Assembly: GCA_965215045.1 (NCBI GenBank)
Contig: OZ244031.1
Span: 1,581,961 to 1,645,960, forward strand
DNA: 64,000 bases
DNA from: Gammaproteobacteria bacterium
Lineage (GTDB): Bacteria; Pseudomonadota; Gammaproteobacteria; JABABF01
Direction of reading: 5' to 3'
Below, piece by piece: positions 2 to 42,254 of the stretch. The stretch's first letter is position 1. Each line of letters opens with the position of its first letter. The notes beneath the pieces were generated by a model that did no database searches, was not told the origin of the DNA, and worked only from the letters and a program-made list of their open reading frames with translations. Position numbers and translations under genes: made by a program.

Positions 2-262
2 GCATACTCCCTGGAGGAGTTCCTGGAAGCCGCGCCCGGGCGCAGTACCCGGGCCGGGTTGCGGGCGGCGGTGCCGCTGATGATGGCCGGTCTGGTGGAA
101 CTGGCGTACCGGGAATGCGTGGCGCGGCACCCTGAGCTGCGCTCTCCCCCGGTACTGCTCTCCGGCGGTGGGCGGCGGGTTTTGCGGCCGCACTTGCAAC
201 TGGAGCGGGTCGAAGAGTGCCCCGCCCTGGTGTTGGATGGTTTGCGCCTTGCGACGCCGTGA
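2..262 (+). CDS. coaX: Type III pantothenate kinase, C-terminal fragment (gene starts left of the window)
   Basis: Frame-2 translation ...PVLLSGGGRRVLRPHLQLERVEECPALVLDGLRLATP* matches the conserved CoaX C-terminus (LTGGGA...PDLVL.GL). It sits directly upstream of a tRNA-Thr, as in many gammaproteobacteria. Confidence 0.6.
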   Translation, partial: AYSLEEFLEAAPGRSTRAGLRAAVPLMMAGLVELAYRECVARHPELRSPPVLLSGGGRRVLRPHLQLERVEECPALVLDGLRLATP

Positions 263-457
263 TGTCACCGCTCCTGCGGCGCACCGGGGGAGGGTGCGAC
301 AGGTCTCGCTCCCCGGGTATCCTTGGGGACGGGTGCGACAGGTCTTGCCTGCGGGGAAGTTGGGGGCTCGGGTCGGGAGCTCGGGTTGGGAGCAGGTGCG
401 GCGGGCAGGGCCTGCGGACTGCGGGGAAGCCGTCGAGGCCTGGGGTCGGGTGCGGGC

Positions 458-533
458 GCCGGAATAGCTCAATTGGCAGAGCAACGCATTTGTAATGCGT
501 AGGTTGTCAGTTCGACTCTGACTTCCGGCACCA
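458..533 (+). tRNA. tRNA-Thr (anticodon TGT)
   Basis: 76-nt cloverleaf GCCGGAA...TTCCGGC-ACCA. Anticodon arm ACGCA-TTTGTAA-TGCGT, T-loop TTCGACT. Confidence 0.9.
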
Positions 534-564
534 ACCCTCCCGCACACGGAAAACCTGTGAACCC

Positions 565-600
565 CGTAGAGGTGCGGGCCGGCAAACTGTATATAATTCT
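565..600 (+). promoter_or_regulatory. Putative sigma70-type promoter (TATAAT at 592..597) upstream of the first DUF3604-like gene
   Basis: AT-rich TATATAAT about 30 nt upstream of the ATG at 628. The -35 element is weak. Confidence 0.3.
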
Positions 601-627
601 CCCCTGTTATCTGATTGGGGAAACCAC

Positions 628-2616
628 ATGCACCTGTCCTGGCGTCTGCTCTGCGCCCTGTTACTTCTGGGTCCCGTTTTTCCCGCCGATGTCTTCGCCC
701 AGTATCCACCCCGTCCCTACCAGGTGACGGAGAAACGCGATCCCTGTCGCGACTACCAGGAGCAGAAGCAGCTGTTCTGGGGGGATACGCACGTGCACAC
801 GACTTTCTCCCTGGATGCCGGCATCCAGGATACCCGCAACCGGCCCGAAGATGCTTACCGTTATGCGCGGGGCGAGCGCCTGGGCCTGCAACCCTACGAT
901 GAACAGGGGCAACCGCTGCGTTTTTCGCAGTTGCGGGAGCCGTTGGACTTTAGCGTGATCAGCGATCACGCCGAGGCCCTGGGCATCGTCGGCGTTTGCA
1001 CCACGCCGGGGTACGAGGGCTATGACTCTTTTACCTGCAAGTCCTACAGGGATCGTCCCAGTCTCGCCTATTTCATGATGCTGCGCCTGCCGATCGGCAG
1101 CCGTTACCTGGCGAATCGTTACCCGTGGCTGGGTTTCCTGAGAAAACTGACGGACCGGGATGCGGGTCTGCCGTCCCTGTGCGGGGAGGGAGGCCGGGAT
1201 TGCCTGAAGATGGGCAGTGAGCGCTGGCAGCAGATCCAGGCGGCGGCGGAGGCGGCGTACGACCGCTCTTCCGCCTGCAACTTTACTTCTTTTGTCGGTT
1301 ACGAGTGGACCGGGGACACGGAGGTGAACCTGCACCGCAACGTGGTGTTCCGCAACCGCAATGTTCCGGCACACCCGGTCAGCTATGTCGATGTCGCCAC
1401 CCCCGAGGAGCTGTGGCAGACTTTCCAGCGCGACTGCCTGGATGCGGACAACGGCTGCGATGTGCTGGCCATCCCCCATAATTCCAACCTCAGTGACGGC
1501 CGGATGTTCCCGGACTGGAAGGGCGGGGCCGGGGATTACGGCCCGGAGCAGGCGCGCCTGCGCGCCCGGGTCGAGCCGGTATTTGAAATCATGCAGCACA
1601 AGGGAGATTCGGAATGCTGGTACGGAGAGGGCGTCCAAGATGAACTGTGCGCCTTTGAAAAACTGCCCTATAACCTGTTTGCCGGGAGATTTTTCTCCCG
1701 TTTCCAGGAGCCGACCGAGCCGGGGGATGGCTATGCGCGGGGCATCCTGGCCCAGGGCATGCGTTACTGGCGGGGCATGGGTATCGATCCCTACCTGATG
1801 GGGTTTATCGGCAGCAGCGACACGCACCTGGGCACGCCGGGGGCGGTGGAGGAGGCGGACCACCAGGGGCATGGCGGTGCCGGCCGGGTGGAATTCGGGG
1901 AATTGCCGCAGGGGCTGCCCGATGACCTGGAGTTCAACCCCGGCGGGCTGGCGGCGGTGTGGGCCGAGGAAAACACGCGCGATGCGTTGTTTTCCGCGAT
2001 GCAACGGCGCGAGACGTACGGCACCAGCGGGCCGCGCATCCGACTGCGCTTTTTTGGCGGTTGGAATTATGATCCGTACTTGTGCAACCGGGGAATGCGC
2101 GACATAGTGGGCCAGGGCTATGCGCGCGGTGCGCCGATGGGCGGTGTCCTGGAGGAGAAACCCGGCGGCCGGCTGGGCTTCGTGATCGATGCCTGGCGCG
2201 CCTCCCGGAGCGCGCGCCTGCAGCAGGTGCAAATCATCAAGGGCTGGGTTGACGGGCGGGGCAATACCCGCGAAAAAATCTACCTGGCGGCGGGCGACCC
2301 CGAGAATGGTGCCAGCGTGGACCCGGTGAGCTGCCAGACGCAGGGCAGCGGCTATGACCGCCTGTGCAAGGTGTGGCAGGACCCGGATTTCAAGCGCGGG
2401 CAACAGGCGTATTACTATGCGCGGGTGGTGGAGAACCCGAGTTGCCGCTGGAGTGCGCGCGTATGCAGTGCGCACCAGGTCGACTGCGAGCAGCCCGGGA
2501 CCATCCCCGAGGGGCTTGCGGGCTGCTGTGCGCCGGAACACCGGCCGGTGGTCCAGGAGCGGGCCTGGAGTTCGCCGATCTGGTATCGTCCCGCCGCCGC
2601 CCGGGCGCAGCCTTGA
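628..2616 (+). CDS. Secreted DUF3604-like protein (PHP-type metal-dependent hydrolase fold), paralog 1 of 4
   Basis: 662 aa with an N-terminal signal-like segment (LLCALLLLGPVFPADVFAQ). Shares motifs FWGDTHVHTTFS.D, DFSVISDHAE, IPHNSNLSDG, MQHKGDSECWYG, RETYGTSGPRIRLRFFGGW and a C-terminal Cys-rich CRWSARVC...VDC...GCCAPEHRPVVQERAWSSPIWY. Length and motifs fit DUF3604. Confidence 0.8.
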   Translation: MHLSWRLLCALLLLGPVFPADVFAQYPPRPYQVTEKRDPCRDYQEQKQLFWGDTHVHTTFSLDAGIQDTRNRPEDAYRYARGERLGLQPYDEQGQPLRFSQLREPLDFSVISDHAEALGIVGVCTTPGYEGYDSFTCKSYRDRPSLAYFMMLRLPIGSRYLANRYPWLGFLRKLTDRDAGLPSLCGEGGRDCLKMGSERWQQIQAAAEAAYDRSSACNFTSFVGYEWTGDTEVNLHRNVVFRNRNVPAHPVSYVDVATPEELWQTFQRDCLDADNGCDVLAIPHNSNLSDGRMFPDWKGGAGDYGPEQARLRARVEPVFEIMQHKGDSECWYGEGVQDELCAFEKLPYNLFAGRFFSRFQEPTEPGDGYARGILAQGMRYWRGMGIDPYLMGFIGSSDTHLGTPGAVEEADHQGHGGAGRVEFGELPQGLPDDLEFNPGGLAAVWAEENTRDALFSAMQRRETYGTSGPRIRLRFFGGWNYDPYLCNRGMRDIVGQGYARGAPMGGVLEEKPGGRLGFVIDAWRASRSARLQQVQIIKGWVDGRGNTREKIYLAAGDPENGASVDPVSCQTQGSGYDRLCKVWQDPDFKRGQQAYYYARVVENPSCRWSARVCSAHQVDCEQPGTIPEGLAGCCAPEHRPVVQERAWSSPIWYRPAAARAQP

Positions 2617-2633
2617 GAACCGCAGCGTATTGA

Positions 2634-4673
2634 ATGGGCGTGAGCGTCCATTGTCGTGCTGCGGTGTTCCGGCGTTATTGCCGGGGCCAGGGGGTACTGG
2701 TACTGCTGTTGGCAACCGGCACCTGGCTTCCCCTGCCGGTGGCGGCACAAGCGGCACCGGAGCGTCCCTACCGGGTCACCGAGGAGCGCGCCCCGTGCCG
2801 CGACTACCGTCCGCAAAAACAGCTGTTCTGGGGGGATACCCACGTGCACACGGCGTTCTCTGTCGATGCGGGCCTGCAGGACACCCGCAACCGGCCGGCA
2901 GATGCCTACCGCTATGCCCGGGGCGAGCGCCTGGGACTGCAACCGTACGATGAGCAGGGGCGCCCGCTGCGTTTTTCGCAGTTGCGGGAACCGCTGGATT
3001 TCACCGTCGTCAGCGACCATGCCGAAAATTTGGGCATGGTCGCCGTGTGCACGACACCGGGTTACAAGGGGTATGACTCCTTCACCTGTACCTCCTTCAG
3101 AAAACGACCGCGTCTGTCCTATTTTTTCAGTGCCGGCATGACGCTGGGCAGCCGCTACCTGGCCGAGCGTTACTCGTGGCTGGGTTTCCTGGGAAAACTG
3201 ACGGACCCGAACCGGCCACCGCCGGCCCTGTGCGGGGAGGACGGCCGGGACTGCCGGCAATTGCGCCGGGCCCGCTGGCGGCAGATCCAGGAAGCGGCGG
3301 AGGCGGCCTATGATCGCAGCCCCGCCTGCAGTTTCACTTCTTTTGTCGGTTACGAGTGGACCGGGAACGAGGCGGTGAACCTGCACCGCAACGTGATCTT
3401 CCGCAATCGCAATGTCACGGAGCGGCCGATCAGTTACATGGATGAGAGTACCCCGGAGAAGTTGTGGCAGGCCCTGCAAAGCGAGTGCCTGGAGGCGGGC
3501 AAGGGCTGTGACGTGCTGGCCATTCCGCATAACTCCAATCTCAGTGACGGCCAGATGTTCCGGCCCTGGACGGGCGGTGCCGGCGATTACAGCCCGGGGC
3601 AGGCGCGCCTGCGCGTGCGCATCGAACCGATGTTCGAGATCATGCAACACAAGGGCGATGCGGAATGCTGGTACGGGGTGGGAGTCCGGGATGAATTCTG
3701 CGCCTTTGAAAAGCTGCCCTACGATCGCTTCGTCGGCCGGTTTTTCCGCGGTCTGCGCGAGCATCCCGAACCCCGCGATGGCTATGCGCGGGACATCCTG
3801 GCCCAGGGCATGCGCTATTTTCGGGGCATCGGCGTCGATCCCTACCAGGTGGGTTTTATCGGCAGCAGCGATACGCACCTGGGCACGCCGGGGGCGGTGG
3901 AGGAGACCGGCCACCAGGGCCACGGCGGTGCCGGCAAGATGAGTTTTGGCGAAGTGCAGCCGGGTCTGCCGGATGACCTGGAGTACAACCCCGGCGGACT
4001 GGCGGCGGTGTGGGCGGAGGAGAATACGCGCGATTCGCTGTTTGCGGCACTGCGTCGGCGCGAGGCCTACGGCACCAGCGGGCCGCGCATCCGGCTGCGT
4101 TTTTTCGGCGGCTGGAACTATGACCCGCAGCTGTGCAGCCGTGAGCTGCGGGAACTGGTCGCCCAGGGCTATGCGCGGGGTGCGCCGATGGGCGGCGTCC
4201 TGGAGGCGGCAGCGGACGGTGCGCGCCCGGGTTTCGTGGTCGATGCCTGGCGCGCCGCCGGCGGGGAGGATGCACCGCTGCAGCAGCTGCAGATCATCAA
4301 GGGTTGGCTCGATGCCCGGGGCCGGGCGCAGGAAAAAATCTACACGGTGGCGGGCGATCCTGACAACGGGGCCGGCGTGGACCTGGCGACGTGTCGGAGA
4401 CGGGGCAGCGGCTATGACCGCCTGTGCCAGGTGTGGCAGGACCCCGATTTCGAGAGCGGGCAGCAGGCGTATTATTACGCGCGGGTGCTGCAGAACCCGG
4501 GCTGCCGCTGGAGTGCGCACATCTGCGCAGCGCATCAAGTTGACTGCAAACGGCCCCAGACCATCACCGAGGGCCTGGAGGGCTGCTGTGCACGGGAGCA
4601 CCGGCCGGTGATCCAGGAGCGGGCCTGGAGTTCGCCGATCTGGTATCGTCCCGCCGCCCGGGCCGCGCGCTGA
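2634..4673 (+). CDS. Secreted DUF3604-like protein, paralog 2
   Basis: 679 aa, same conserved blocks as paralog 1 (FWGDTHVHTAFSVD, DFTVVSDHAE, IPHNSNLSDG...). Signal-like N-terminus ends VAAQAA. Starts 18 nt after paralog 1. Confidence 0.8.
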   Translation: MGVSVHCRAAVFRRYCRGQGVLVLLLATGTWLPLPVAAQAAPERPYRVTEERAPCRDYRPQKQLFWGDTHVHTAFSVDAGLQDTRNRPADAYRYARGERLGLQPYDEQGRPLRFSQLREPLDFTVVSDHAENLGMVAVCTTPGYKGYDSFTCTSFRKRPRLSYFFSAGMTLGSRYLAERYSWLGFLGKLTDPNRPPPALCGEDGRDCRQLRRARWRQIQEAAEAAYDRSPACSFTSFVGYEWTGNEAVNLHRNVIFRNRNVTERPISYMDESTPEKLWQALQSECLEAGKGCDVLAIPHNSNLSDGQMFRPWTGGAGDYSPGQARLRVRIEPMFEIMQHKGDAECWYGVGVRDEFCAFEKLPYDRFVGRFFRGLREHPEPRDGYARDILAQGMRYFRGIGVDPYQVGFIGSSDTHLGTPGAVEETGHQGHGGAGKMSFGEVQPGLPDDLEYNPGGLAAVWAEENTRDSLFAALRRREAYGTSGPRIRLRFFGGWNYDPQLCSRELRELVAQGYARGAPMGGVLEAAADGARPGFVVDAWRAAGGEDAPLQQLQIIKGWLDARGRAQEKIYTVAGDPDNGAGVDLATCRRRGSGYDRLCQVWQDPDFESGQQAYYYARVLQNPGCRWSAHICAAHQVDCKRPQTITEGLEGCCAREHRPVIQERAWSSPIWYRPAARAAR

Positions 4674-4677
4674 GTCG

Positions 4678-6693
4678 ATGCGCCGGTCCCCGCAGCTCCT
4701 GCCGCAAGGGAGTGTCCTGGTACCGCTGTTGGCGGCCTGTGCCTGTGCCGTCCTGCCGGTTGCAGCGCAGTCACCGGAGCGGCCGTACGCGCTCACCGAG
4801 GCGCGCGAGCCCTGCCGCGATTACCGCCCGCAAAAACAGCTGTTCTGGGGCGATACCCACGTGCATACGGCTTTTTCCTTCGATGCCGGCATCTATGGAA
4901 CCCGCAACCGGCCGGAAGATGCCTACCGCTATGCCCGCGGCGAGCGCCTGGGATTGCAGCCCTACGATGCGCAGGGCCGGGCACTGCGTTTTTCGCAATT
5001 GCGGGAACCGCTGGATTTCACCGTGGTCAGCGACCATGCCGAAGGTCTGGGCATTGCGGGTGTTTGCGGCGTGCCGGGCTACGAGGGCTATGACTCCTTC
5101 ACCTGCACCTCCTACAGGGAACGGCCGCGTCTTGCGCGTTTCCTGATGTTGCAACTCCCGCTCATTCGCCGCCACCTGGCCGAGCGTTACTCGTGGCTGG
5201 GTTTTCTGAAAAGACCGGAGGTCCGGGTGCGAGAGCCGCCCGCCCTGTGCGGGGAGGGGGGCAGGGACTGCCTGCAGGGCGGCCGGGAAATCTGGCGGCA
5301 GATCCAGGAAGCGGCAGAGCGCGCCTACGACCGCACTTCCGCCTGCCGTTTCACTTCTTTTGTCGCTTATGAGTGGACCGGGGATACGCGGGTGAACCTG
5401 CACCGCAACGTGATCTTCCGCAACCGCGAGGTGCTGGCACGGCCGATCAGTTACCTGGATGCGCCTACCCCGGAGGAGTTGTGGCAGGGGCTCCAACGCG
5501 ATTGCCTGGATGCCGGCAACGGCTGTGACTTGTTGGCCATTCCCCACAATGCCAATCTCAGCGACGGCCAGATGTTCCGACCCTGGGAGGGCGATACAAG
5601 CGATGATGCCCTGGCCCGGGCGCAGCTGCGCGCCCGCATCGAACCGGTGTTGGAAATCATGCAGCGCAAGGGGGACTCGGAGTGCTGGTTCGGGGCGGGG
5701 GTAGAGGATGAATTCTGCGCCTTTGAGAAACTGCCCTACGATCGATTTGCCGGAAGAACCTTCCGCAGTCTCGGGGCAGCACCCGAACCCGGCGATGGCT
5801 ATGCGCGGGACATCCTGGCCCGGGGCATGCGCTATTTTCGGGGTCTCGGCGTCGACCCCTACCGGCTGGGTTTTATCGGCAGCACGGATACACACCTGGG
5901 CATTTCGGGGGCGGTGGAGGAGGGCGGCTACCAGGGGCATGGCGACCCCGGGAATACGATACTGGGAAAATTGCCGGCGGCGGGTCTGCCGGATGCCCTG
6001 GAGTACAACCCCGGGGGATTGGCGGCGGTGTGGGCGGAGGAGAATACGCGCGATTCGCTGTTTGCGGCACTGCGTCGGCGCGAGGCCTACGGCACCAGCG
6101 GGCCGCGCATCCGGCTGCGCTTTTTCGGCGGCTGGGACTATGATCCGCAGCTGTGCCAGCAAGGAGTGCAGCACCTGGTCGACCGGGGTTATGCGCAGGG
6201 TGTGCCGATGGGCGGTGTCCTGGAGCCGGCCATGGACGGTGCCCGCCCGGGTTTCGTGGTCGATGCCTGGCGGGCCGCCGGCGGGGAAAACGCACCGCTG
6301 CAGCAGCTGCAGATCATCAAGGGTTGGCTCGATACCCGGGGCCGGGCCCAAGAAAAAATCTACACCGTGGCGGGTGAGCCCCGAAACGGGGCCGGTGTGG
6401 ACCTGGCGACATGCCGGGGACGGGGCAGCGGCTATGACCGCCTGTGCCAGGTGTGGGAGGACCCCGATTTCGAGAGCGGCCAGCAGGCGTATTATTATGT
6501 GCGGGTGCTCCAGAACCCGAGCTGCCGCTGGAGTGCGCGCATCTGCAATGCGCACCGGGTCGACTGCCAGCGGCCCGGGACCATCACCGGGGGACTTGCG
6601 GGCTGCTGTGCACCGGAGCACCGGCCGGTGATCCAGGAGCGGGCCTGGAGTTCACCGATCTGGTATCGTCCCGTCGCCCGGGCACCACACTGA
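4678..6693 (+). CDS. Secreted DUF3604-like protein, paralog 3
   Basis: 671 aa, same blocks (FWGDTHVHTAFSFD, DFTVVSDHAE, IPHNANLSDG). Starts 5 nt after paralog 2. Confidence 0.8.
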   Translation: MRRSPQLLPQGSVLVPLLAACACAVLPVAAQSPERPYALTEAREPCRDYRPQKQLFWGDTHVHTAFSFDAGIYGTRNRPEDAYRYARGERLGLQPYDAQGRALRFSQLREPLDFTVVSDHAEGLGIAGVCGVPGYEGYDSFTCTSYRERPRLARFLMLQLPLIRRHLAERYSWLGFLKRPEVRVREPPALCGEGGRDCLQGGREIWRQIQEAAERAYDRTSACRFTSFVAYEWTGDTRVNLHRNVIFRNREVLARPISYLDAPTPEELWQGLQRDCLDAGNGCDLLAIPHNANLSDGQMFRPWEGDTSDDALARAQLRARIEPVLEIMQRKGDSECWFGAGVEDEFCAFEKLPYDRFAGRTFRSLGAAPEPGDGYARDILARGMRYFRGLGVDPYRLGFIGSTDTHLGISGAVEEGGYQGHGDPGNTILGKLPAAGLPDALEYNPGGLAAVWAEENTRDSLFAALRRREAYGTSGPRIRLRFFGGWDYDPQLCQQGVQHLVDRGYAQGVPMGGVLEPAMDGARPGFVVDAWRAAGGENAPLQQLQIIKGWLDTRGRAQEKIYTVAGEPRNGAGVDLATCRGRGSGYDRLCQVWEDPDFESGQQAYYYVRVLQNPSCRWSARICNAHRVDCQRPGTITGGLAGCCAPEHRPVIQERAWSSPIWYRPVARAPH

Positions 6694-6703
6694 GGATCAT
6701 GTA

Positions 6704-8725
6704 ATGATGAATCGACATTCGCATCCCCTGCCGCTGAGCGGTATCTCGGTACTGCTGCTGGGGGCGTTCGCCTGGGCCTCCCCGCCGCTTGCAGCACAGG
6801 CACCGGAGCGGCCGTACACGATCACCGAGGAGCGCGAGCCCTGCCGCGATTACCGTCCGGAAAAACAGGTGTTCTGGGGCGACACCCACGTGCACACCGC
6901 GTACTCTTTTGACGCCTCTATGTGGGACACGCGCAATGACCCGGACGACGCCTACCGCTTCGCCCGGGGCGAGCCGGCGGGCATCCTGCCGTATAGCGAA
7001 CAGGGCGAGGCACAGCGCTGGGTGCAATTGCCCCGGCCGCTGGATTTTGCCATGGTCTCCGACCATGCCGAGCACCTGGGGCGCATCGATATCTGCGCGC
7101 GCAAAGACCTGCTGGGGTACTATTCGATCAACTGCAGGATCTTTCGCGGCCGCCCGCAACTGAGCTTTTTCACCAACCTGGCGATGCCGCTGATTCTGAA
7201 GGAACTCACGCTGCAGAACGATAATTGGCGCTTCCTGAAAAAGTTGTTTCGCGCCGAACAACCGCCGCTGTTCTGCGGCCCTGACAACCGGCGCTGTTAC
7301 GAAGCCGCGCGGCCGGTCTGGAAGCGCATCCAGGCGGCGGCGGAGCGCGCTTACGATCGCAGCACCGCCTGCCGTTTTACTTCTTTTGTCGGCTATGAAT
7401 GGACCGCCTACACCGGCGGCAATATTCATCGCAACGTGGTGTTCCGCAATGAGCGGGTGCCGGCGGACCCGATCAGTGCCAACGAGGCCCCCGAGGCTCC
7501 CGGGCTGTGGCGGGCCTTGGATCGCGAGTGCATCCAGGGGGTTCCCGGTTGCGATGTGCTGGTCATCCCGCACAACAGTAACGTGAGCCGGGGGCTGATG
7601 TTCCCCGACCCGGGCGGGGAGCGCACCGCACCGCACAACCCGCGCACCGCGGTGCTGAGTGCCCGTTTTGATCGCCTGTTCGAGATCATGCAGCACAAGG
7701 GCGATTCCGAGTGCTGGTACGGACAGGGGATCGCCGATGAACTGTGCGCCTTTGAGAAGCTGAGTTACGACGCCCTGGGTGCCCAGATCAGCCCGCGCTT
7801 TGCCATCCCCAGTCATCCCAGCGATGGTTTCCTGCGCCCCGTGCTGTCGTCGGGCCTGGTCTACCAGCGGCAATTCGGCGTCAATCCCTACCGCCTGGGC
7901 GTGATCGCGAGCACGGACAATCACCTGGGCACGCCGGGTTCGGTCGAGGAATACAATTTTGTCGGGCACACGGGCATCTCTGCCAACAGGAATTTCCAGA
8001 ACATGAGTGCCGGTCTGCGCCTGCCGGATTCGCCGAACTTCAATCCCGGCGGGCTGGCGGCGGTGTGGGCGGAAGAGAATACGCGCGACTCGCTGTTTTC
8101 TGCGATGCGCCGCCGCGAGACGTACGGCACCAGCGGCCCGCGGCTCGAGGTGCGCTTTTTCGGCGGTTGGAACTATCCCGCAGACTTGTGTCGCAACCCC
8201 GACTGGGTGAAGGAGGCGTATGCGGGCGGGGTGCCGATGGGCGGTGTCCTGGCCGCGGATGCCGCACTCGGAACCGCCGCTGCACCGCGCTTTTTGCTGT
8301 ATGCGCGTCGCGACCCGGGTGTCGCCGGGCATCCGGGTCTGCCGCTGCAATACATGCAGCTTATCAAGGGCTGGGTAGATGAGCGGGGCACCGCACAGGA
8401 GAAGGTCTACGACGTCGCCGGCAACCCCGACAGCGAGGCCGGGGTGGACAGTGACTGTCGGCCGCACGGTGCGGGATACCAGCGGCTGTGCCAGGTGTGG
8501 AGCGACCCGGACTTTGATGCGGGGCGCGATGCCTGGTACTACGCGCGCGTGTTGCAGAATCCGAGCTGCCGCTGGAGTGCTCGCTGGTGCAGTGCGCAGG
8601 GGGTGAACTGCGAGGATCCGGCATCGGTTCCCGCGGGCATGGAAGCCTGTTGTGCAGCGGATCATCGCCGGGTGATCCGGGAGCGGGCCTGGACTTCGCC
8701 GATCTGGTACCAGGCGCAGCCGTGA
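6704..8725 (+). CDS. Secreted DUF3604-like protein, paralog 4 (most divergent)
   Basis: 673 aa with the same core motifs (FWGDTHVHTAYSFD, DFAMVSDHAE, IPHNSNVSRG, MQHKGDSECWYG, C-terminal CCAADHRRVIRERAWTSPIWY). Signal-like N-terminus. Confidence 0.8.
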   Translation: MMNRHSHPLPLSGISVLLLGAFAWASPPLAAQAPERPYTITEEREPCRDYRPEKQVFWGDTHVHTAYSFDASMWDTRNDPDDAYRFARGEPAGILPYSEQGEAQRWVQLPRPLDFAMVSDHAEHLGRIDICARKDLLGYYSINCRIFRGRPQLSFFTNLAMPLILKELTLQNDNWRFLKKLFRAEQPPLFCGPDNRRCYEAARPVWKRIQAAAERAYDRSTACRFTSFVGYEWTAYTGGNIHRNVVFRNERVPADPISANEAPEAPGLWRALDRECIQGVPGCDVLVIPHNSNVSRGLMFPDPGGERTAPHNPRTAVLSARFDRLFEIMQHKGDSECWYGQGIADELCAFEKLSYDALGAQISPRFAIPSHPSDGFLRPVLSSGLVYQRQFGVNPYRLGVIASTDNHLGTPGSVEEYNFVGHTGISANRNFQNMSAGLRLPDSPNFNPGGLAAVWAEENTRDSLFSAMRRRETYGTSGPRLEVRFFGGWNYPADLCRNPDWVKEAYAGGVPMGGVLAADAALGTAAAPRFLLYARRDPGVAGHPGLPLQYMQLIKGWVDERGTAQEKVYDVAGNPDSEAGVDSDCRPHGAGYQRLCQVWSDPDFDAGRDAWYYARVLQNPSCRWSARWCSAQGVNCEDPASVPAGMEACCAADHRRVIRERAWTSPIWYQAQP

Positions 8726-8829
8726 AGCCAGTCGGCACAATTTTTTCTTGTATTTCTCCGTCGCCAATGCCGAACCCCGGTCTCCAGGAGAGCGGCCCTA
8801 AGCGCTGCTGAGCCCGACTGCGTCCGGCG

Positions 8830-9744
8830 ATGCGCCCGTTTCTCAAACCGGGAAAAAGGTCCTGGCTGCATTTCCTGGCACTGGGCCTGCTGCTGTACCT
8901 GGCGACCCTGTTATGGCCCGAACACGAGCCGCCGCCGGAACCGGTGCGACTGGATGAGACCCGGGTACAGGAACTGCGCCTGGGCTGGTTGCGGCGCACC
9001 GGGACCTACCCGGATGCGCGGCAGATGGAGGCCCTGGTGGAAGACGCGATCGACCGGGAGTTGCTGTTCCAGGAGGGTTTGCGGCTGGGCCTGCACTTGG
9101 TCGACAACGTGGTCTGGCGGCGCCTGGTGCGGAACATGCGTTTTACCGGCATGGAGGGCAGCGACTGGAAATTACTGCGCCAGGCCCTGGATTTCGACAT
9201 GCACCGCAATGATATTGTCGTGCGCCGCCGGGTCATCCAGGTCATGGAGGAGCGGGCCCGCAGCCTGGTGGAGAAGCCTTCCGCGGCGGAATTGCGCGAG
9301 CAGTACCGGTTGCGCGAGGCGGAATTTCGCCGCCGCCTGACCAGTTTCCGGCACATTTTTTCAGGCTACCAGGAGCGCGGGTTGGAGCGGGCGCAGGCTG
9401 AAATCCAGGCCTTGCGGGCACAGTGCCGGGCCGCCCTGTTTGCCGGGCAGCGGGGCGACCCGCATCCCGCCGGTTTTGAATTGCTGCAGCGCACGGACCA
9501 CCAGGTCATGAAGTATTTCGGCGGTGATTTTGTGCAGGCATTGCAGGCGGCACCCGTGGGAGACTGTTTCGGACCGGTGGAGTCCGCCTACGGCGCACAC
9601 CTGGTGTGGGTGCTGGAGCGCAGCGACGAGACGCTGTCCTTTGCGCAGCTGCGGCCCCGCTTGCACGAAGACCTGGTGCGCCGCCGCAGCCGGACGATTC
9701 TCCGGGAACAGCTGCAGCAGCTGCGCCGGCAGCGCGGGATGTGA
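8830..9744 (+). CDS. Parvulin (PpiC)-type peptidyl-prolyl isomerase domain protein with SurA-like N-terminal region
   Basis: 304 aa with an N-terminal TM/signal segment. The C-terminal region (FRHIF...YFGGDFVQAL...GDCFGPVESAYGAHLVWVLER) resembles the parvulin fold (FG.H.I.V motif). Confidence 0.45.
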   Translation: MRPFLKPGKRSWLHFLALGLLLYLATLLWPEHEPPPEPVRLDETRVQELRLGWLRRTGTYPDARQMEALVEDAIDRELLFQEGLRLGLHLVDNVVWRRLVRNMRFTGMEGSDWKLLRQALDFDMHRNDIVVRRRVIQVMEERARSLVEKPSAAELREQYRLREAEFRRRLTSFRHIFSGYQERGLERAQAEIQALRAQCRAALFAGQRGDPHPAGFELLQRTDHQVMKYFGGDFVQALQAAPVGDCFGPVESAYGAHLVWVLERSDETLSFAQLRPRLHEDLVRRRSRTILREQLQQLRRQRGM

Positions 9745-10724
9745 CGGTGCGCATCCCGCTCCTGTTCCTGGCTTGCGCCCTGGCCACACCGGCGTCGGCG
9801 CATCGCCTGGCACCCTCCCTGCTCGAAGTCCGGGAACAGGGGGAGGGGCACTATCGCATGGCCTGGCAACAGCCGGCGGTGGTGCCCTCGGGCCGGGAGC
9901 GACCCGCCCCGCGCCTGCCGGCACATTGCACCGCACTGGGCGAGGCGCAACTGGAACCGCTGCAGACTCCGACCGGTGCCGCCCTGCGCACCGTGCAGGA
10001 GATCGATTGCGGCAGCCGCGGACTGGAGCGCATCGCGGTCGACCAGTTGCGCAGTGATTCCGTGGTACTGCTGCGCATCCTGTTCGCCAATGGACGCATC
10101 CTGACGCGCCTGCTCAGCCACTCTGCGGCGGAATTCGAAGTGCCGCAGAGAATCGGTTTCCTGGCCGCCAGTGCCCAGTACCTGCGCCTGGGCGTGCAAC
10201 ATATCCTGGGCGGCATCGATCACCTGCTGTTCGTCTTTGGCCTGCTGCTGCTGATACGCACCACGCGGTCCCTGGTCTACACCATCACCGCCTTCACGGT
10301 CGGCCACAGCATCACCCTGTCGCTGACCGTGCTGGGTTGGCTCTACCTGCCTACTTCCCTGGTGGAGTTTACGATCGCATTGAGTATTTTCTGGGTGGCG
10401 GTGCAACTGACCCGCCCGGAACAAGAGCGCGGTTTCAGCGGGCGGCGGCCGGGGCTGGTGGCGGTGCTGTTCGGTTTTTTACACGGCATGGGTTTTGCCG
10501 GTGCACTGGCGGAAACCGGCCTGCCGGTGCACGAATTGCCCGCGGCCCTGCTGAGCTTTAATATCGGCATCGAGATTGGCCAGCTGCTGTTCATCGCGGC
10601 AGTGCTGCTGTTGCGCCAGCTGCCGTTCGTCATGCGGCAGGCGCAACTGCGCCCGCTGCTGGTTTACGTGCTGGGCGTGGCCGCGGCCTTCTGGTGTTTT
10701 GAACGTTTCTTCCTGATGTTTTAG
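9741..10724 (+). CDS. HupE/UreJ-2 family membrane protein (putative Ni/Co-type metal permease)
   Basis: GTG at 9741 overlaps the upstream stop (GATGTGA). Signal peptide ...ATPASA|HRLAPS gives a mature N-terminal His as in HupE/UreJ. C-terminal multi-TM domain with HSITLSL and FNIGIEIGQLLF motifs. Confidence 0.6.
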   Translation: MTVRIPLLFLACALATPASAHRLAPSLLEVREQGEGHYRMAWQQPAVVPSGRERPAPRLPAHCTALGEAQLEPLQTPTGAALRTVQEIDCGSRGLERIAVDQLRSDSVVLLRILFANGRILTRLLSHSAAEFEVPQRIGFLAASAQYLRLGVQHILGGIDHLLFVFGLLLLIRTTRSLVYTITAFTVGHSITLSLTVLGWLYLPTSLVEFTIALSIFWVAVQLTRPEQERGFSGRRPGLVAVLFGFLHGMGFAGALAETGLPVHELPAALLSFNIGIEIGQLLFIAAVLLLRQLPFVMRQAQLRPLLVYVLGVAAAFWCFERFFLMF

Positions 10725-10734
10725 CGGCGGTTGA

Positions 10735-12543
10735 TTACCGCCGGGTCTGCTTCCACAGGATATCGATGGTTTTTGGATCGTAGGGCGGCAGCATCTTGAA
10801 CAGCTTGGCCGGGTTGGTAAAGCCCTGGCGCAGCATCGCGCGCTGGTGACTGAAGGTGCGAAAACCGTCGAAGCCGTGGTAATTGCCCATGCCGCTGTCC
10901 CCGATACCCCCGAAAGGCAGGTCGCTGCAGCTGGCGTGCATCATCACGTCGTTAATGGTCACCCCCCCGGAACAGGTGCTGTCCAGGATGCGCTCCTCCT
11001 CCTTGCGATCCTCGCCAAAATAATACAGTGCCAGGGGGCGTGGCCGGGCATTGATAAAGTCGATGACTTCATCGATATCATCGTAGTGGCGCAGTACCAT
11101 CACCGGTCCGAACAGCTCGTGTTGCATCACCAGTGCCTCATCGACGGGCTCCAGGACCAGGTGCAGGGGCAGCCTGTGGGAGCCGTCATCGGCGATCGCT
11201 TTCTGCAGTTCTTCGACGCGCGCGCCGCGTTTCCTGGCATCCTCGAGCCATTGGTTCAGGCGTTGTAAATGCTTTTCGTTGACGATCGAAGTGTAATCGG
11301 GATTGCCGGAGATCAGGGGATACAGGTTGCCGAAGACCAGCTTGGCGTAATGCAGGAACTCTTCCAGACTGTTGTTAAATTCCTCGGAGTTGAAAGTATC
11401 GCGCGGCAGGAACACGTAGTCCGGGGAGATGCAGGCCTGCCCGGAATTCATCATCTTGCCGCAGATGATTCTCTCCACCGCCTGCTGCAGGTTCGCCGAC
11501 TTGCCGATAATCACCGGCGATTTGCCTCCCAGTTCCAGGGTGACCGGGGTCAGGTTGGGTGCCGCTGCACTCAATACCTTGCGGCCGATTTCCGTGCCGC
11601 CGGTAAAGATCAGGTGATCAAATGGCAGGCTGCTGAAGATCGCCCCGACCTCGGGGCCGCCCGTGCAGACCGCGATCTCGGTGGGTTCAAAATAACGCGG
11701 AAACAATTCCGCCATCAGTTCCGCGGTGGCCGGGTTGACTTCGGAGGGTTTGATCATCGCCCGGTTGCCGGCACCCAGGATATTCGACAGGGGATTGAAA
11801 ATCATATTGACCGGGAAGTTCCACGGTGCCATGATGCCGACCACTCCCTTGGGTTCGTAGCGTACACAAGCCCGGGCGCCCAGGAGCAGCGACACCAAAC
11901 CCGGGTTGCGCCGTTCCGGCCGCACCCAGCGCCGCAGGTGTCTCTTGGTGTGCTTGAGCTGGGTCAGCGAATCGAGCACGTCGCTCATCAGGCTGAGTGG
12001 TCGCGCCCGGCCGCTGAAATCCGCATCCAGCGCCTCGATAATGAGTTTCCGATGATTGACCAGCAGGGTGATGCAACGGTCGATCCGGTCGAGCCTGACG
12101 CCCAGGTGCACCTTGCCCTCGGCGAGAAAAGCCCGACGCTGCTGTTTTAGGAGTTCCTCCATGAATGCGCGTGTCGCCGGGGGTCTGGAGGCGTCCCGGG
12201 GAGGTGCTCCCGGAACGGTCACCGCCGCTGCAGAAGCTTGCGCTTGCGGCTGCTCCCCAAGCGTTTCCATGCCCTGGAAGGCGGCCTGTTCTGCGGCCGG
12301 AGCCGGGGCAGCGGGTGCCGGGGCAGCGGGTGCCGGCGTCACTTGTATTTCCGGCGTCTCGGTTGCCACCGCCTTGGCCCGGGTGCGACTGCTGGCCGTG
12401 GATTTGGCGGCCGTTTTTTTGCGTGTGCCGGTGGTGGAGCGGCGCCGGGTGGCGGTCTTGGGTTTGTTCGCGGTTTTCTTGGCGGTGCTGGATGACTTGG
12501 CAGCGGGTTTCCGTTTTTTTGTGCCCGAGGCTTCAGCGTTCAT
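10735..12543 (-). CDS. Aldehyde dehydrogenase (coniferyl-aldehyde-DH-like ALDH family) with about 127-aa N-terminal Lys/Ala/Pro/Thr-rich histone-H1-like extension
   Basis: 602 aa. The residue 128-602 core has ALDH motifs (GVVGIMAPWNFP, ELGGKSPVII, cysteine region GQACISPDY). The N-terminus is low complexity (KKRKPAAKSSSTAKKTANKPKTATRRR...PAPAAPAPAAPAPAAE). Confidence 0.8.
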   Translation of the reverse strand: MNAEASGTKKRKPAAKSSSTAKKTANKPKTATRRRSTTGTRKKTAAKSTASSRTRAKAVATETPEIQVTPAPAAPAPAAPAPAAEQAAFQGMETLGEQPQAQASAAAVTVPGAPPRDASRPPATRAFMEELLKQQRRAFLAEGKVHLGVRLDRIDRCITLLVNHRKLIIEALDADFSGRARPLSLMSDVLDSLTQLKHTKRHLRRWVRPERRNPGLVSLLLGARACVRYEPKGVVGIMAPWNFPVNMIFNPLSNILGAGNRAMIKPSEVNPATAELMAELFPRYFEPTEIAVCTGGPEVGAIFSSLPFDHLIFTGGTEIGRKVLSAAAPNLTPVTLELGGKSPVIIGKSANLQQAVERIICGKMMNSGQACISPDYVFLPRDTFNSEEFNNSLEEFLHYAKLVFGNLYPLISGNPDYTSIVNEKHLQRLNQWLEDARKRGARVEELQKAIADDGSHRLPLHLVLEPVDEALVMQHELFGPVMVLRHYDDIDEVIDFINARPRPLALYYFGEDRKEEERILDSTCSGGVTINDVMMHASCSDLPFGGIGDSGMGNYHGFDGFRTFSHQRAMLRQGFTNPAKLFKMLPPYDPKTIDILWKQTRR

Positions 12544-40234: not shown

Positions 40235-40308
40235 GGCTGGATGGCAGAGTGGTTATGCAGCGGACTGCAACTCCGTGTACGCCGGTTCGATTCCGACTCC
40301 AGCCTCCA
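40235..40308 (+). tRNA. tRNA-Cys (anticodon GCA)
   Basis: Acceptor GGCTGGA/TCCAGCC plus TCCA. Anticodon arm GCGGA-CTGCAAC-TCCGT, T-loop TTCGATT. One C-A mismatch in the T stem. Confidence 0.8.
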
Positions 40309-40328
40309 TATTTGCCGCGCTCTCTAAG

Positions 40329-40512
40329 CAGGGGGGAGTGGAAAGCAGAGGGGGAGTGGAAAGCAGAGGGGGAGTGGAGAGCAGGGGGGGAGTGGAGAGC
40401 AGGGGGGAGTGGAGAGCAGAGGGGGAGTGGAAAGCAGAGGGGGAGTGGAGAGCAGAGGGGGAGTGGAAAGCAGAGGGGGAGTGGAAAGCAGAGGGGGAGT
40501 GGAGAGCAGGGG
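40329..40512. repeat. 18-bp G-rich tandem repeat, about 11 copies, between tRNA-Cys and tRNA-Leu
   Basis: Unit GGGGGAGTGGA(A/G)AGCAGA, with occasional 17/19-bp variants. The G5-7 runs recur every 18 nt on the + strand. Confidence 0.9.
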
Positions 40513-40596
40513 GAGCATGAAAACAGCATGCCGGGCGGGTGGTTTGATTTTCCTGGCACCGGTGATGAGAGGCACAAGAGTAGCCTGGCAGTGAAC

Positions 40597-40683
40597 GCCC
40601 GGGTGGCGAAATTGGTAGACGCAGGGGACTTAAAATCCCCGGACTTGCAAGTCATGTCGGTTCGAGTCCGGCCCCGGGCACCA
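40597..40683 (+). tRNA. tRNA-Leu (anticodon TAA), long variable arm
   Basis: 87 nt, GCCCGGG...CCCGGGC-ACCA. Anticodon arm GGGGA-CTTAAAA-TCCCC. Same cysT-leuZ order after pgsA as in E. coli. Confidence 0.9.
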
Positions 40684-40741
40684 GGAACGGGCGGGGAATG
40701 CTCCCCGGCTCGCAAGACCCCGGCTATATGATGCTGGCGTT

Positions 40742-41000
40742 GAGTATAGGGCTTGGGATTGGTTTATATATACGCTGTCGTTTAGTATAGGGCTAGGGAT
40801 TGGTTTATATATACGCTGTCGTTTAGTATAGGGCTAGGGATTGGTTTATATATACGCTGTCGTTTAGTATAGGGCTAGGAATTGGTTTATATTATTCTAT
40901 CGTTTAGTATAGGGCTAGGGGTTGGTTTATATTATTCTATCATTTAGTATAGGGCTTGGAATTGGTTTATATATACGCTATCGTTTAGTATAGATATTGA
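40742..41000. repeat. 41-bp AT-rich tandem repeat, about 6.5 copies
   Basis: Unit GTTTAGTATAGGGCTAGGGATTGGTTTATATATACGCTGTC at 40742, 40780, 40821, 40862, 40902 and 40942, with a partial copy to about 41000. Copies 4-5 carry the variant TATTATTCTATC. Confidence 0.9.
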
Positions 41001-41060
41001 AATTTTATGCTATTATGTGTTATCTACAATCATTTTCCTCCAAACACGGGTCTGAGCAAA

Positions 41061-42254
41061 ATGGCAGAGCATCCACAAGCAAGCTCTCCCGATCGGGAAC
41101 GCACCGGCCGCTATGTACAGCAGCCACAGGGATACCGCGCTTTTATCCCCAGGGCATTGCCTCCCGATCCCCCCTTGCGGCTCAGCCCGGGGATGCAGCA
41201 ACTGCTCTCCCAAGCGGACCGTGCCCTGGGGCGGCTGAGTGGTTCCGCGGGGGTATTGCCCAGCCTGGGTTTGTTTGTCTACGAGATGCACGTGCGCAAG
41301 GAGGCGGTGTTATCCAGCCGGATCGAGGGAACCCGGAGTTCCCTGCAGGATTTGCTGATTGCCGAGGCCGGCGTGCTCCCATCCGGGCGTCCCGATGATG
41401 TCGCCGAAGTCACCAATTATGTGCGGGCTTTCAACTATGGTCTGTATCGACTGGAGGAGCTTCCCGTGTGTGTTCGGCTATTATGCGAAATGCACGAGCT
41501 CTTGCTGCAGGGGGTGCGGGGGGCCCCGGCCCGGCCCGGGCTGCTGCGCGAGTCTCAAAATTGGCTCGGGCCCGCCGGGTGCGATCGGAGCGAAGCCACT
41601 TTTATACCTCCTCCTCCCGCCGAGGTGCCTGCCGCCCTGGGGGAGCTGGAAAAGTTTCTGAATGCCCCAGGCGGCTTACCCCCACTGGTCTGGATTGGCC
41701 TGGCGCATGCCCAATTTGAAACCATTCATCCCTTCCTGGATGGCAATGGGCGCCTGGGCCGCCTGCTGATTAGCTTGCTGCTGGCGCAACAGCAGATCTT
41801 GCAAAAGCCGGTTCTCTACCTGTCGGATTATTTTTATCGCCACCGCTTGGAGTACTACGATCGTCTCCAGGCCGTACATGAGCAGGGCGACTGGGAAGGA
41901 TGGATCGAATTCTTTCTGCAGGGGGTCGCCGATGTGAGTCAGGATGCGGCCGAAACCATTCAGCACATCTATGCTCTGCGTGAAAAACATCGTGCTGAGA
42001 TTAATATGGCATTGGGGCGGGCTGCCGGCAACGGGCTGCGTATCCTGGAGTTCCTTTACTCGCAGCCGCTGTTCACCGTGCCCCGGGTGCAGGGACACCT
42101 GGGTGTCAGTTATGCATCGGCCAATCAACTGGTATCGCGCCTGGAAAAATTGGGGATCCTGGAGGAAATCAGTGGCCGTAAACGCAATCGCGTGTACCGC
42201 TATTCCTCTTACCTGGAACTCTTTGAAAAAAATCCTCCGCCGAACCAGGCCTGA
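41061..42254 (+). CDS. Fic family protein (class-II-like; putative AMPylating toxin-type enzyme) with C-terminal winged-helix region
   Basis: Start at MAEHPQ. Fic_N-type N-terminus (YVQQPQGYRAFIPRALPP), inhibitory-helix motif SSRIEG (S/TxxxE(G/N)), catalytic motif HPFLDGNGRLGR. Confidence 0.8.
   Translation: MAEHPQASSPDRERTGRYVQQPQGYRAFIPRALPPDPPLRLSPGMQQLLSQADRALGRLSGSAGVLPSLGLFVYEMHVRKEAVLSSRIEGTRSSLQDLLIAEAGVLPSGRPDDVAEVTNYVRAFNYGLYRLEELPVCVRLLCEMHELLLQGVRGAPARPGLLRESQNWLGPAGCDRSEATFIPPPPAEVPAALGELEKFLNAPGGLPPLVWIGLAHAQFETIHPFLDGNGRLGRLLISLLLAQQQILQKPVLYLSDYFYRHRLEYYDRLQAVHEQGDWEGWIEFFLQGVADVSQDAAETIQHIYALREKHRAEINMALGRAAGNGLRILEFLYSQPLFTVPRVQGHLGVSYASANQLVSRLEKLGILEEISGRKRNRVYRYSSYLELFEKNPPPNQA

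Follow-up and report, generated by a model that had tools for sequence, protein, structure and literature searches.

The 64-kb window analyzed here (contig OZ244031.1 of the Gammaproteobacteria assembly GCA_965215045.1) carries near its left end a tandem array of four genes encoding DUF3604 proteins, followed by two genes that we assign to the same unit. All six lie on the forward strand. Paralogue 1 occupies positions 628–2616 (662 amino acids, aa), paralogue 2 positions 2634–4673 (679 aa), paralogue 3 positions 4678–6693 (671 aa), and paralogue 4 positions 6704–8725 (673 aa). The array repeats with a period of 2017–2060 nucleotides (nt), and the gaps between its genes measure 17, 4, and 10 nt. 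A junction of 104 nt leads from copy 4 to a gene for a membrane-anchored SurA-like chaperone, a parvulin-type peptidyl-prolyl isomerase (PPIase)-like protein (8830–9744; 304 aa), which runs into a gene for a HupE/UreJ-type membrane permease (9741–10724; 327 aa from a GTG at 9741). Upstream, 94 nt separate the first DUF3604 gene from a tRNA-Thr gene (anticodon UGU; 458–533, forward strand; called by ARAGORN and matched by the Rfam tRNA model at 73 bits). A first-pass annotation, made from the letters of the stretch, had described four co-oriented genes of exactly these protein lengths with gaps of 5–18 nt. The layout stands, and so does the close spacing, with the gap values corrected as above; the unit itself has to be extended by the two downstream genes that the annotation missed. 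We propose that the four DUF3604 genes, the SurA-like gene, and the HupE-like gene probably form a single six-gene operon-like unit that produces and matures exported metalloenzymes.

An assembly artefact is ruled out as the origin of the array, since independent assemblies carry it too. Three contigs from two other assemblies—the short-read metagenome-assembled genome (MAG) GCA_964348175.1 and one further ENA sample—reproduce the array together with tRNA-Thr over window positions 406–11350 at 99.4–99.6% identity (spans 406–5699, 5630–11350, and 6081–10962). The short-read assembly breaks inside copy 3, as a repeat would predict. Scans for sigma-70 promoters and terminators gave no convincing candidate either in the leader or downstream of copy 4, terminator-like matches falling inside the coding repeats, and no riboswitch or known RNA was found in the leader. 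CTGTxAT repeats in the leader that resemble a Pho box were rejected as such: their spacing is wrong (17 nt), and relatives lack them.

All four array proteins match PF12228 (DUF3604) end to end, at profile positions 2–591 of 591 and 525–541 bits against a gathering score of 20.4 bits. Expectation values (E) range from 2.6e-157 (copy 1) to 3.5e-162, with 3e-160 for copy 3 and 2e-158 for copy 4. The initial family identification thus survives the Pfam search proposed for it, and the motif blocks reported as common to the copies, including the C-terminal Cys-rich block, are all found in the four-way alignment. None of the four proteins matched an NCBIfam family at E ≤ 0.01, and all four left the CehA/McbA metallohydrolase model (accession presumably NF038032) unmatched. 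The window proteins are bona fide DUF3604 members of the PHP superfamily, and DUF3604 (which we take to be InterPro IPR022028) is itself a known but uncharacterized family. It is large: of the clusters formed at 50% identity, 11,127 match at E ≤ 1e-3 and 1,684 still do so at E ≤ 1e-30. Among GTDB species representatives, the best matches are only 45–49% identical and come from Halieaceae and Pseudomonadales MAGs.

Structure prediction was carried out on copy 2. A single-sequence AlphaFold run reached a predicted local distance difference test score (pLDDT) of 33.7 and was replaced by a model built from a 120-sequence alignment (m645da7c90234; pLDDT 92.5, predicted template-modeling score 0.92). 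In a Foldseek search with this model, the sole match at E ≤ 0.001 was PDB entry 3e38 (E 1.7e-6). Further structural neighbors were listed as the PHP domains of PolC/DnaE (8.1–6.4), RNase AM (7.3), YcdX (7.0), PolX (6.7), and HisK (6.5–6.0). A PHP-type fold, the distorted (beta/alpha)7 barrel, is therewith supported for the DUF3604 proteins at the level of the predicted model. Each protein presents the same domain order: a PHP-type barrel, a helical "lid" insertion, a C-terminal beta-sandwich, and a Cys-rich tail.

Nine residues of ligand type—H70, H72, D78, H129, E241, H251, H299, D413, and H415 in copy 2 numbering—are invariant in the 120 relatives. All four window copies keep them, as do distant members from Rhizobium, Sinorhizobium, a myxococcal MAG, and Endozoicomonas. 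Most of the nine are placed at, or immediately after, the end of a strand in the predicted structure, an arrangement also seen in PHP barrels. In sequence they follow the order HxH-x5-D, DH, E, H, H, DxH, which we take to be the trinuclear PHP site pattern; the PHP motifs were reportedly defined by Aravind and Koonin in 1998. The alignment supports a complete PHP-type ligand pattern and hence a candidate metal site, extending the partial HxH/SDH arrangement that had first drawn attention to a PHP-like chemistry.

One further conserved histidine differs in copy 3. Its codon 330 (window 5665–5667) is CGC, which puts Arg into EIMQ-R-KGD; copies 1, 2, and 4 have His (CAC) there, as do 118 of the 120 relatives. 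The Arg codon recurs in two contigs of an independent assembly (L107 and L108). A reading of this change as loss of a metal ligand was rejected as a firm claim, since I, T, or V stands there in rhizobial members and in one metagenomic member, while the set of nine never varies. The residue is probably of second-shell or substrate-contacting type and not itself a core ligand.

The N-termini of the four copies show a charged n-region, a hydrophobic core, and cleavage-like sites VFA/Q, VAA/Q, VAA/Q, and LAA/Q, as judged by a heuristic only. The same heuristic is positive in 99 of 117 family members, and residues 1–40 of the copy 2 model have low pLDDT. Export of the DUF3604 proteins to the periplasm, as first suggested from the signal-peptide-like starts, is therefore likely on sequence grounds. 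Residues 18–21 of copy 3 (window 4729–4740) read LAAC, which fits the lipobox [LVI][ASTVI][GAS]C; copy 3 might thus be a lipoprotein, unlike the other three. Eighteen cysteines are conserved across this branch of DUF3604, all four copies included. Because rhizobial homologues in which all 18 are replaced still keep the nine ligand-type residues, the Cys-rich module points to structural disulfides and not to a metal centre. Structural disulfides of an extracytoplasmic protein would most simply account for the 18 cysteines, a better fit than a role in catalysis.

The two downstream genes are assigned by their domain matches. The 304-aa protein matches PF13145 (Rotamase_2; E 7.6e-8, 33.6 bits against a cut-off of 27) and, by phmmer, Escherichia coli SurA (PDB 1m5y; E 6.9e-8), with its residues 57–271 aligned to SurA 37–260, which cover the N-domain and P1; it has a single N-terminal hydrophobic segment. 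The 327-aa permease matches PF13795 (HupE_UreJ_2; E 1.1e-44, 152 bits) and is predicted to combine a signal peptide with a ~125-aa periplasmic domain and six hydrophobic segments. Its translation contains GVQHILGGIDHLLF and FGFLHGMGFAG, with the patterns HxxxGxDH and FGxxHGxGF, and many of its homologues also match the classical HupE_UreJ family PF04955. The GTG start at 9741 overlaps the stop of the SurA-like gene by 4 nt, making the two a translationally coupled pair. The same 327-aa call is obtained in L108 and L109, and the 4-nt stop/start overlap of the pair is also found in L025 and L113–L116.

The combination of DUF3604, SurA-like, and HupE-like genes recurs well beyond this genome. With one to four DUF3604 copies, the triad is present in Gammaproteobacteria, Alphaproteobacteria, and Myxococcota, and it occurs, in either gene order, in 12 of 34 unrelated loci with enough flanking sequence. 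Among species-representative genomes it was found at 8/20 loci, and among metagenomic loci flanked by 2.5 kb or more on each side at 8/24 (either order), each time with one DUF3604 copy. A Myxococcota MAG and Pseudomonadales MAGs likewise carry it with one copy. On Rhizobium (RefSeq-annotated) and Sinorhizobium (GenBank-annotated) megaplasmids the triad appears with one copy, as genes labeled DUF3604, peptidylprolyl isomerase, and HupE/UreJ. On pSymA of S. meliloti M270 (L112, 3819–10457), two tandem DUF3604 genes precede the PPIase-like and HupE-like genes; a literature search on the meliloti pSymA HupE returned no functional information. The three closest relatives of the window locus, L001, L002, and L003, hold the triad with four, four, and two DUF3604 copies. 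The chaperone–permease pair is a fixed two-gene unit whose linkage to DUF3604 is frequent and phylogenetically broad, and not obligatory.

We propose the following mechanism for the unit. The four enzymes would be exported unfolded through Sec and would fold in the periplasm with about nine disulfides, assisted by the dedicated SurA-like chaperone, and two or three divalent metal ions would be loaded there. The HupE-like permease would handle the same metal, supplying or balancing it. The mature enzymes may then hydrolyze esters in the periplasm, phosphoesters being the most probable targets, and the four copies, having diverged in lid and loop segments, could cover different substrate ranges. 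Taken as a whole—operon-like unit, mechanism, and the expansion history set out below—we give this explanation a probability of about 0.6.

Several observations weigh against it. On the enzymatic side, phmmer and profile searches of the PDB gave no match at E ≤ 10. An hhalign comparison of the family profile with E. coli YcdX reached a probability of 1.2% and was not significant, although it nonetheless paired VSDHAE with ITDHGP. PsfC, a close structural neighbor, is a di-iron enzyme whose chemistry is oxidative, not hydrolytic. Characterized HupE/UreJ proteins import Ni or Co into the cytoplasm, so that a part in loading a periplasmic enzyme is not obvious. As to linkage, about two-thirds of DUF3604 loci lack a nearby chaperone–permease pair. 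Conversely, Halieaceae carry the pair without an adjacent DUF3604 gene, with the 4-nt overlap kept in Halioglobus sp. and Seongchinamella unica (L113 and L114, both at 6072–8002); lone DUF3604 genes lie elsewhere in such Halieaceae-type genomes. For the expansion history, the deeper nodes of the paralogue tree have 25–74% support, and signature-site counts are too few to assign the orthology of copy 4. Finally, literature searches on DUF3604, PF12228, IPR022028, and CT425 returned only a gene-table mention with no functional information: Chlamydia CT425 bears the DUF3604 label in a published gene table.

A bolder reading, which we hold tentatively and to which we give a minority chance, builds on the same genes. 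On this view the triad would be devoted to maturing a periplasmic trinuclear PHP metalloenzyme and would represent a kind of system that is so far undescribed. Its membrane-anchored chaperone, private to the enzyme, would fold the disulfide-rich apo-enzyme; the permease, working outward or as a membrane metallochaperone, would load a specific metal such as Ni or Co; and the long-lid copies would form a battery for scavenging organic (phospho)esters. If this were true, those copies would have multiplied and diversified in substrate in a small-genome, high-GC lineage.

The DUF3604 proteins could also be nonhydrolytic, carrying out oxidative or other metal chemistry as PsfC does, or serving as periplasmic metal or ligand binders that feed the HupE-like permease. 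We consider this unlikely, because most characterized PHP members, and most entries of the match list obtained here, are phosphoesterases or nucleases (EndoQ, RNase AM, YcdX, HisK, and the polymerase PHP domains), and because the nine-residue set fits the trinuclear hydrolase pattern. In its favor, PsfC shows that oxidative chemistry is also within the reach of this fold.

The history of the array bears on how its four copies should be read. Copies 1–3 share 73, 70, and 76% protein identity with one another and 53–55% with copy 4. At the DNA level copies 1–3 are 76–82% identical overall and 80–83.5% in BLASTN high-scoring segment pairs of 1.4–2.4 kb, 90–97% identity being confined to patches of ≤300 nt. 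An earlier figure of 80–90% over long stretches was therefore slightly generous. In a neighbor-joining tree of the paralogues (600 columns, 200 bootstraps), copies 1–3 form one clade at 100%, with copies 2 and 3 together at 91%, and the four copies of L001 and L002 pair 1:1 at 100% each. Synonymous divergence (dS) among copies 1–3 is 0.37–0.61, with a ratio of nonsynonymous to synonymous divergence (dN/dS) of 0.29–0.42. Against copy 4 the values are 1.0–1.2 and 0.35–0.40, and for L001/L002 orthologue pairs 0.9–1.2 and 0.12–0.18. Identity at fourfold degenerate sites among copies 1–3 is 0.70–0.77. Given the fully supported clade and these dS values, the triplication is lineage-specific but not recent.

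Judged by the dN/dS ratios, purifying selection acts on the copies but is relaxed or in part diversifying. Paralogues differ more than orthologues chiefly in blocks 121–210, 361–390, and 421–450, despite the lower dS, and this blockwise pattern fits specialization of lid and loop regions. The substrate diversification proposed at first is compatible with this divergence (dN/dS 0.29–0.42 between copies vs. 0.12–0.18 between orthologues), and in that limited form it stands.

The lid itself separates two classes of DUF3604 protein. The four window copies all contain a segment of ~20 residues (about 165–185 in copy 2) that also occurs in the c and d copies of L001 and L002 and in the second of the two L003 copies. 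The a and b copies, which head the arrays of L001 and L002, lack it, and so do the first L003 copy and every single-copy outgroup. The 120-sequence alignment accordingly contains 23 long-lid and 96 short-lid proteins, and the spacing between two conserved cysteines is 47–49 residues in the window copies vs. 27–31 in 96 of the 120 relatives. Copy 4 has a GHT motif and features of the lid in common with the d (last) copies of L001 and L002. Copies 1–3 share two derived indels that occur in no other sequence. The ancestor appears to have had both short- and long-lid copies, from which this lineage would have kept a d-like copy 4 and triplicated a c-like copy, ending without a short-lid member.

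A different account of the same tree would make the copies positional orthologues of a–d in an ancestral four-copy array that was homogenized by gene conversion, the monophyly of copies 1–3 being a product of concerted evolution. The copy number of four and the position relative to chaperone and permease are as in L001 and L002, deeper tree nodes group by genome and not by position, and copies 2 and 3 share a patch of 97% identity. A permutation test on fourfold sites, however, found no significant conversion tract in any pair (P = 0.12–0.88). The 100-nt exact run between copies 2 and 3 (at 4000/6020) has P = 0.12 as conversion. The a and b copies of the relatives are short-lid whereas the window copies are all long-lid, so conversion would have needed to move the 20-aa lid as well. 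Moreover, the L001 and L002 copies still pair 1:1 at dS of about 1, which argues that conversion is not pervasive in this type of array. We regard homogenization as improbable.

Still less credible is the recent duplication burst suggested by the first-pass annotation, which would make the copies recently formed and nearly redundant, with a higher dosage of one enzyme as the outcome. The 100% lineage-specific clade of copies 1–3, the 90–97% DNA patches, and the 100-nt exact run would suit it. The dS of 0.37–0.61 (1.0–1.2 to copy 4) and the fourfold-site identity of 0.70–0.77 largely refute it, and further points go the same way: protein identity of 70–76% with divergence concentrated in lid and loops and dN/dS raised relative to orthologues, derived indels common to all three copies, and a sister assembly at 99.4–99.6% identity with the same array.

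We therefore return to the lineage-specific history. A fourfold tandem array is indeed unusual, as first noted, with a single DUF3604 copy at 33 of the 34 unrelated loci, and the proposed comparison of synteny and copy number shows that it is not unique to this genome, as the arrays of the closest relatives, which occupy the same place relative to the downstream genes, hold 4, 4, and 2 copies. The array is an ordinary lineage-specific paralogue expansion of the long-lid subclass inside a conserved operon.

Its surroundings are those of a core chromosome. The wider window holds purL, comEC, msbA, lpxK, murB, uvrC, secY, aspS, and ruvB. Downstream of the unit, on the minus strand, follow genes for an aldehyde dehydrogenase, a GMC oxidoreductase, a class III aminotransferase, and an Ldh/Mdh-family protein, in the same order as in L003 and in part as in L002. 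Upstream, the relatives show thrS-infC-rpmI-rplT-pheS-pheT-ihfA-merR, then tRNA-Pro(GGG) (L001 6090–6166, L002 5993–6069, L003 8022–8098), then the first DUF3604 gene. The window instead shows the end of an open reading frame (ORF), a G-rich repeat region, and tRNA-Thr. The spacer from window position 406 and its junction with tRNA-Thr are also present in the independent assembly L107. This indicates that the 5' edge of the array is a rearrangement breakpoint beside a tRNA gene and not an inserted island. The rearrangement that set tRNA-Thr in place of tRNA-Pro appears to coincide with the absence of short-lid copies.

The earlier suggestion of a rearrangement point is in this way partly borne out by the tRNA exchange, while its companion, an accessory insertion, finds no support. 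A genomic island integrated at tRNA-Thr would have in its favor the tRNA gene directly upstream, the upstream gene order unlike that of relatives, and a variable interval between permease and aldehyde dehydrogenase in relatives (0–4 GT10 glycosyltransferase genes), but we give it hardly any weight, since no integrase or transposase is among the genes annotated in the window, the tRNA-Thr 3' end is repeated nowhere in the 64 kb, GC content (0.65–0.67) and GC at third codon positions (0.77–0.79) equal those of purL, uvrC, aspS, ruvB, and other core genes, and the array, chaperone, permease, Aldedh, GMC, aminotransferase, and Mdh genes are collinear with relatives.

Several features around the array are recorded here in their own right. 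The upstream ORF, of which the window holds the 3' end (2–262, forward strand; 86 codons plus stop), lies outside the operon and is possibly coaX, encoding type III pantothenate kinase. The resemblance proposed at first is weak: three NCBIfam pantothenate-kinase models are matched at their C-termini, the best at E 0.0035 and 17 bits, far below cut-off, and no Pfam match was found for this ORF end even at E 10. The G-rich spacer that follows it (284–453) carries imperfect direct repeats of two families, one of 32-nt units with the core GGGTGCGACAGGTCT and one of 22-nt GTxGGGAGCTCGGGT units. In L001, the call for the first DUF3604 gene (start 6078) overlaps tRNA-Pro and probably starts too early.

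On the other side of the unit, GT10-family tandem genes lie between the HupE-like and aldehyde dehydrogenase genes in relatives, four in L001 (16496–21579) and two in L002 (16305–18581), with none in L003 or the window; they are a second variable tandem family at this locus. The window aldehyde dehydrogenase (10735–12543, minus strand) has an N-terminal extension of ~120 residues, of low complexity and rich in Lys, Arg, Ala, Thr, and Pro (KKRKPAAKSSSTAKKTANKPK..., then APAAP repeats). Its Aldedh domain starts at residue 121, and the relatives' proteins, of 482–489 aa, lack the extension. In L114, an Aldedh and GMC oxidoreductase pair lies ~3 kb from the chaperone–permease pair, as in the window. 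Farther along the window, at 40235–42254, a Fic/DOC-family gene that encodes a Fic_N domain (41007–42254) comes after tRNA-Cys and tRNA-Leu(UAA); beside these tRNA genes it could be a small accessory element.

Three DUF3604 loci elsewhere show other arrangements. On a 735-kb metagenomic contig (L066, 4533–11878), a tandem pair of DUF3604 genes on one strand is accompanied by a third, divergent copy; this is an independent multicopy locus outside the window clade, and in one of its copies Val replaces His339 and one of the conserved cysteines is missing. On S. meliloti RCAM1115 p_1 (L111, 3511–9720), DUF3604 fragments, likely a pseudogene, lie upstream of an intact copy and operon. In Endozoicomonas arenosclerae (L024, 5137–11907), the DUF3604 gene stands among genes for a 5'-nucleotidase-type protein (Metallophos plus 5_nucleotid_C), a TauE-family permease, and a 643-aa protein with no Pfam match, and this locus has no chaperone–permease pair. 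The phosphoesterase neighbor is a weak hint of nucleotide or phosphoester metabolism. Around the window array, the metabolic neighbors give no clue to substrate, since their synteny is limited to close relatives.

The interest of the locus lies in a tractable route to the function of an orphan family; it holds nothing categorically new. It offers an experimental handle on a large family by joining a modeled PHP barrel, a conserved set of ligand-type residues, and a predicted periplasmic location. Its two conserved partner genes suggest how a DUF3604 enzyme is folded and metallated, and its four diverged copies form a natural series in which the lid and loop segments change fastest. Because cultivable rhizobia carry the same operon on megaplasmids, these hypotheses are genetically testable.

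DUF3604 members from Gammaproteobacteria, Alphaproteobacteria, and Myxococcota have in common with the window proteins a length of ~620–680 aa, the nine ligand-type residues, and the domain order. SurA is longer, whereas the window chaperone has one parvulin-like domain and an N-terminal membrane anchor. Relative to HupE/UreJ Ni/Co permeases, the window permease has an additional periplasmic N-domain of ~125 aa, and its gene adjoins neither hydrogenase nor urease genes. PsfC (PDB 7rty), a dinuclear nonheme iron enzyme of fosfomycin biosynthesis that converts 2-phosphonomethylmalate to 3-oxo-4-phosphonobutanoate (3-OBPn), is found in a phosphonate cluster, whereas the window array has no flanking phosphonate genes and its proteins are predicted to be exported.

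The closest solved relatives are BVU_3505 (PDB 3e38) and TM0559 (PDB 2anu), described by structural genomics as "predicted PHP-like metal-dependent phosphoesterases". Sequence identity to them is 14–15%, with no sequence-level match. The window proteins have double their length and add a helical insertion of ~95 residues, a Cys-rich tail, and a predicted signal peptide. The PHP comparators are EndoQ (5zb8), RNase AM/TrpH (9etk), YcdX (1m65), HisK (3dcp, 4gc3, and 2yxo), and the PHP domains of PolC, DnaE, and PolX. Characterized PHP enzymes work in the cytoplasm on nucleic acids, nucleotides, or histidinol phosphate, whereas a periplasmic location and a wealth of disulfides are predicted for the window proteins; their substrate therefore probably differs from those of the PHP enzymes described so far.

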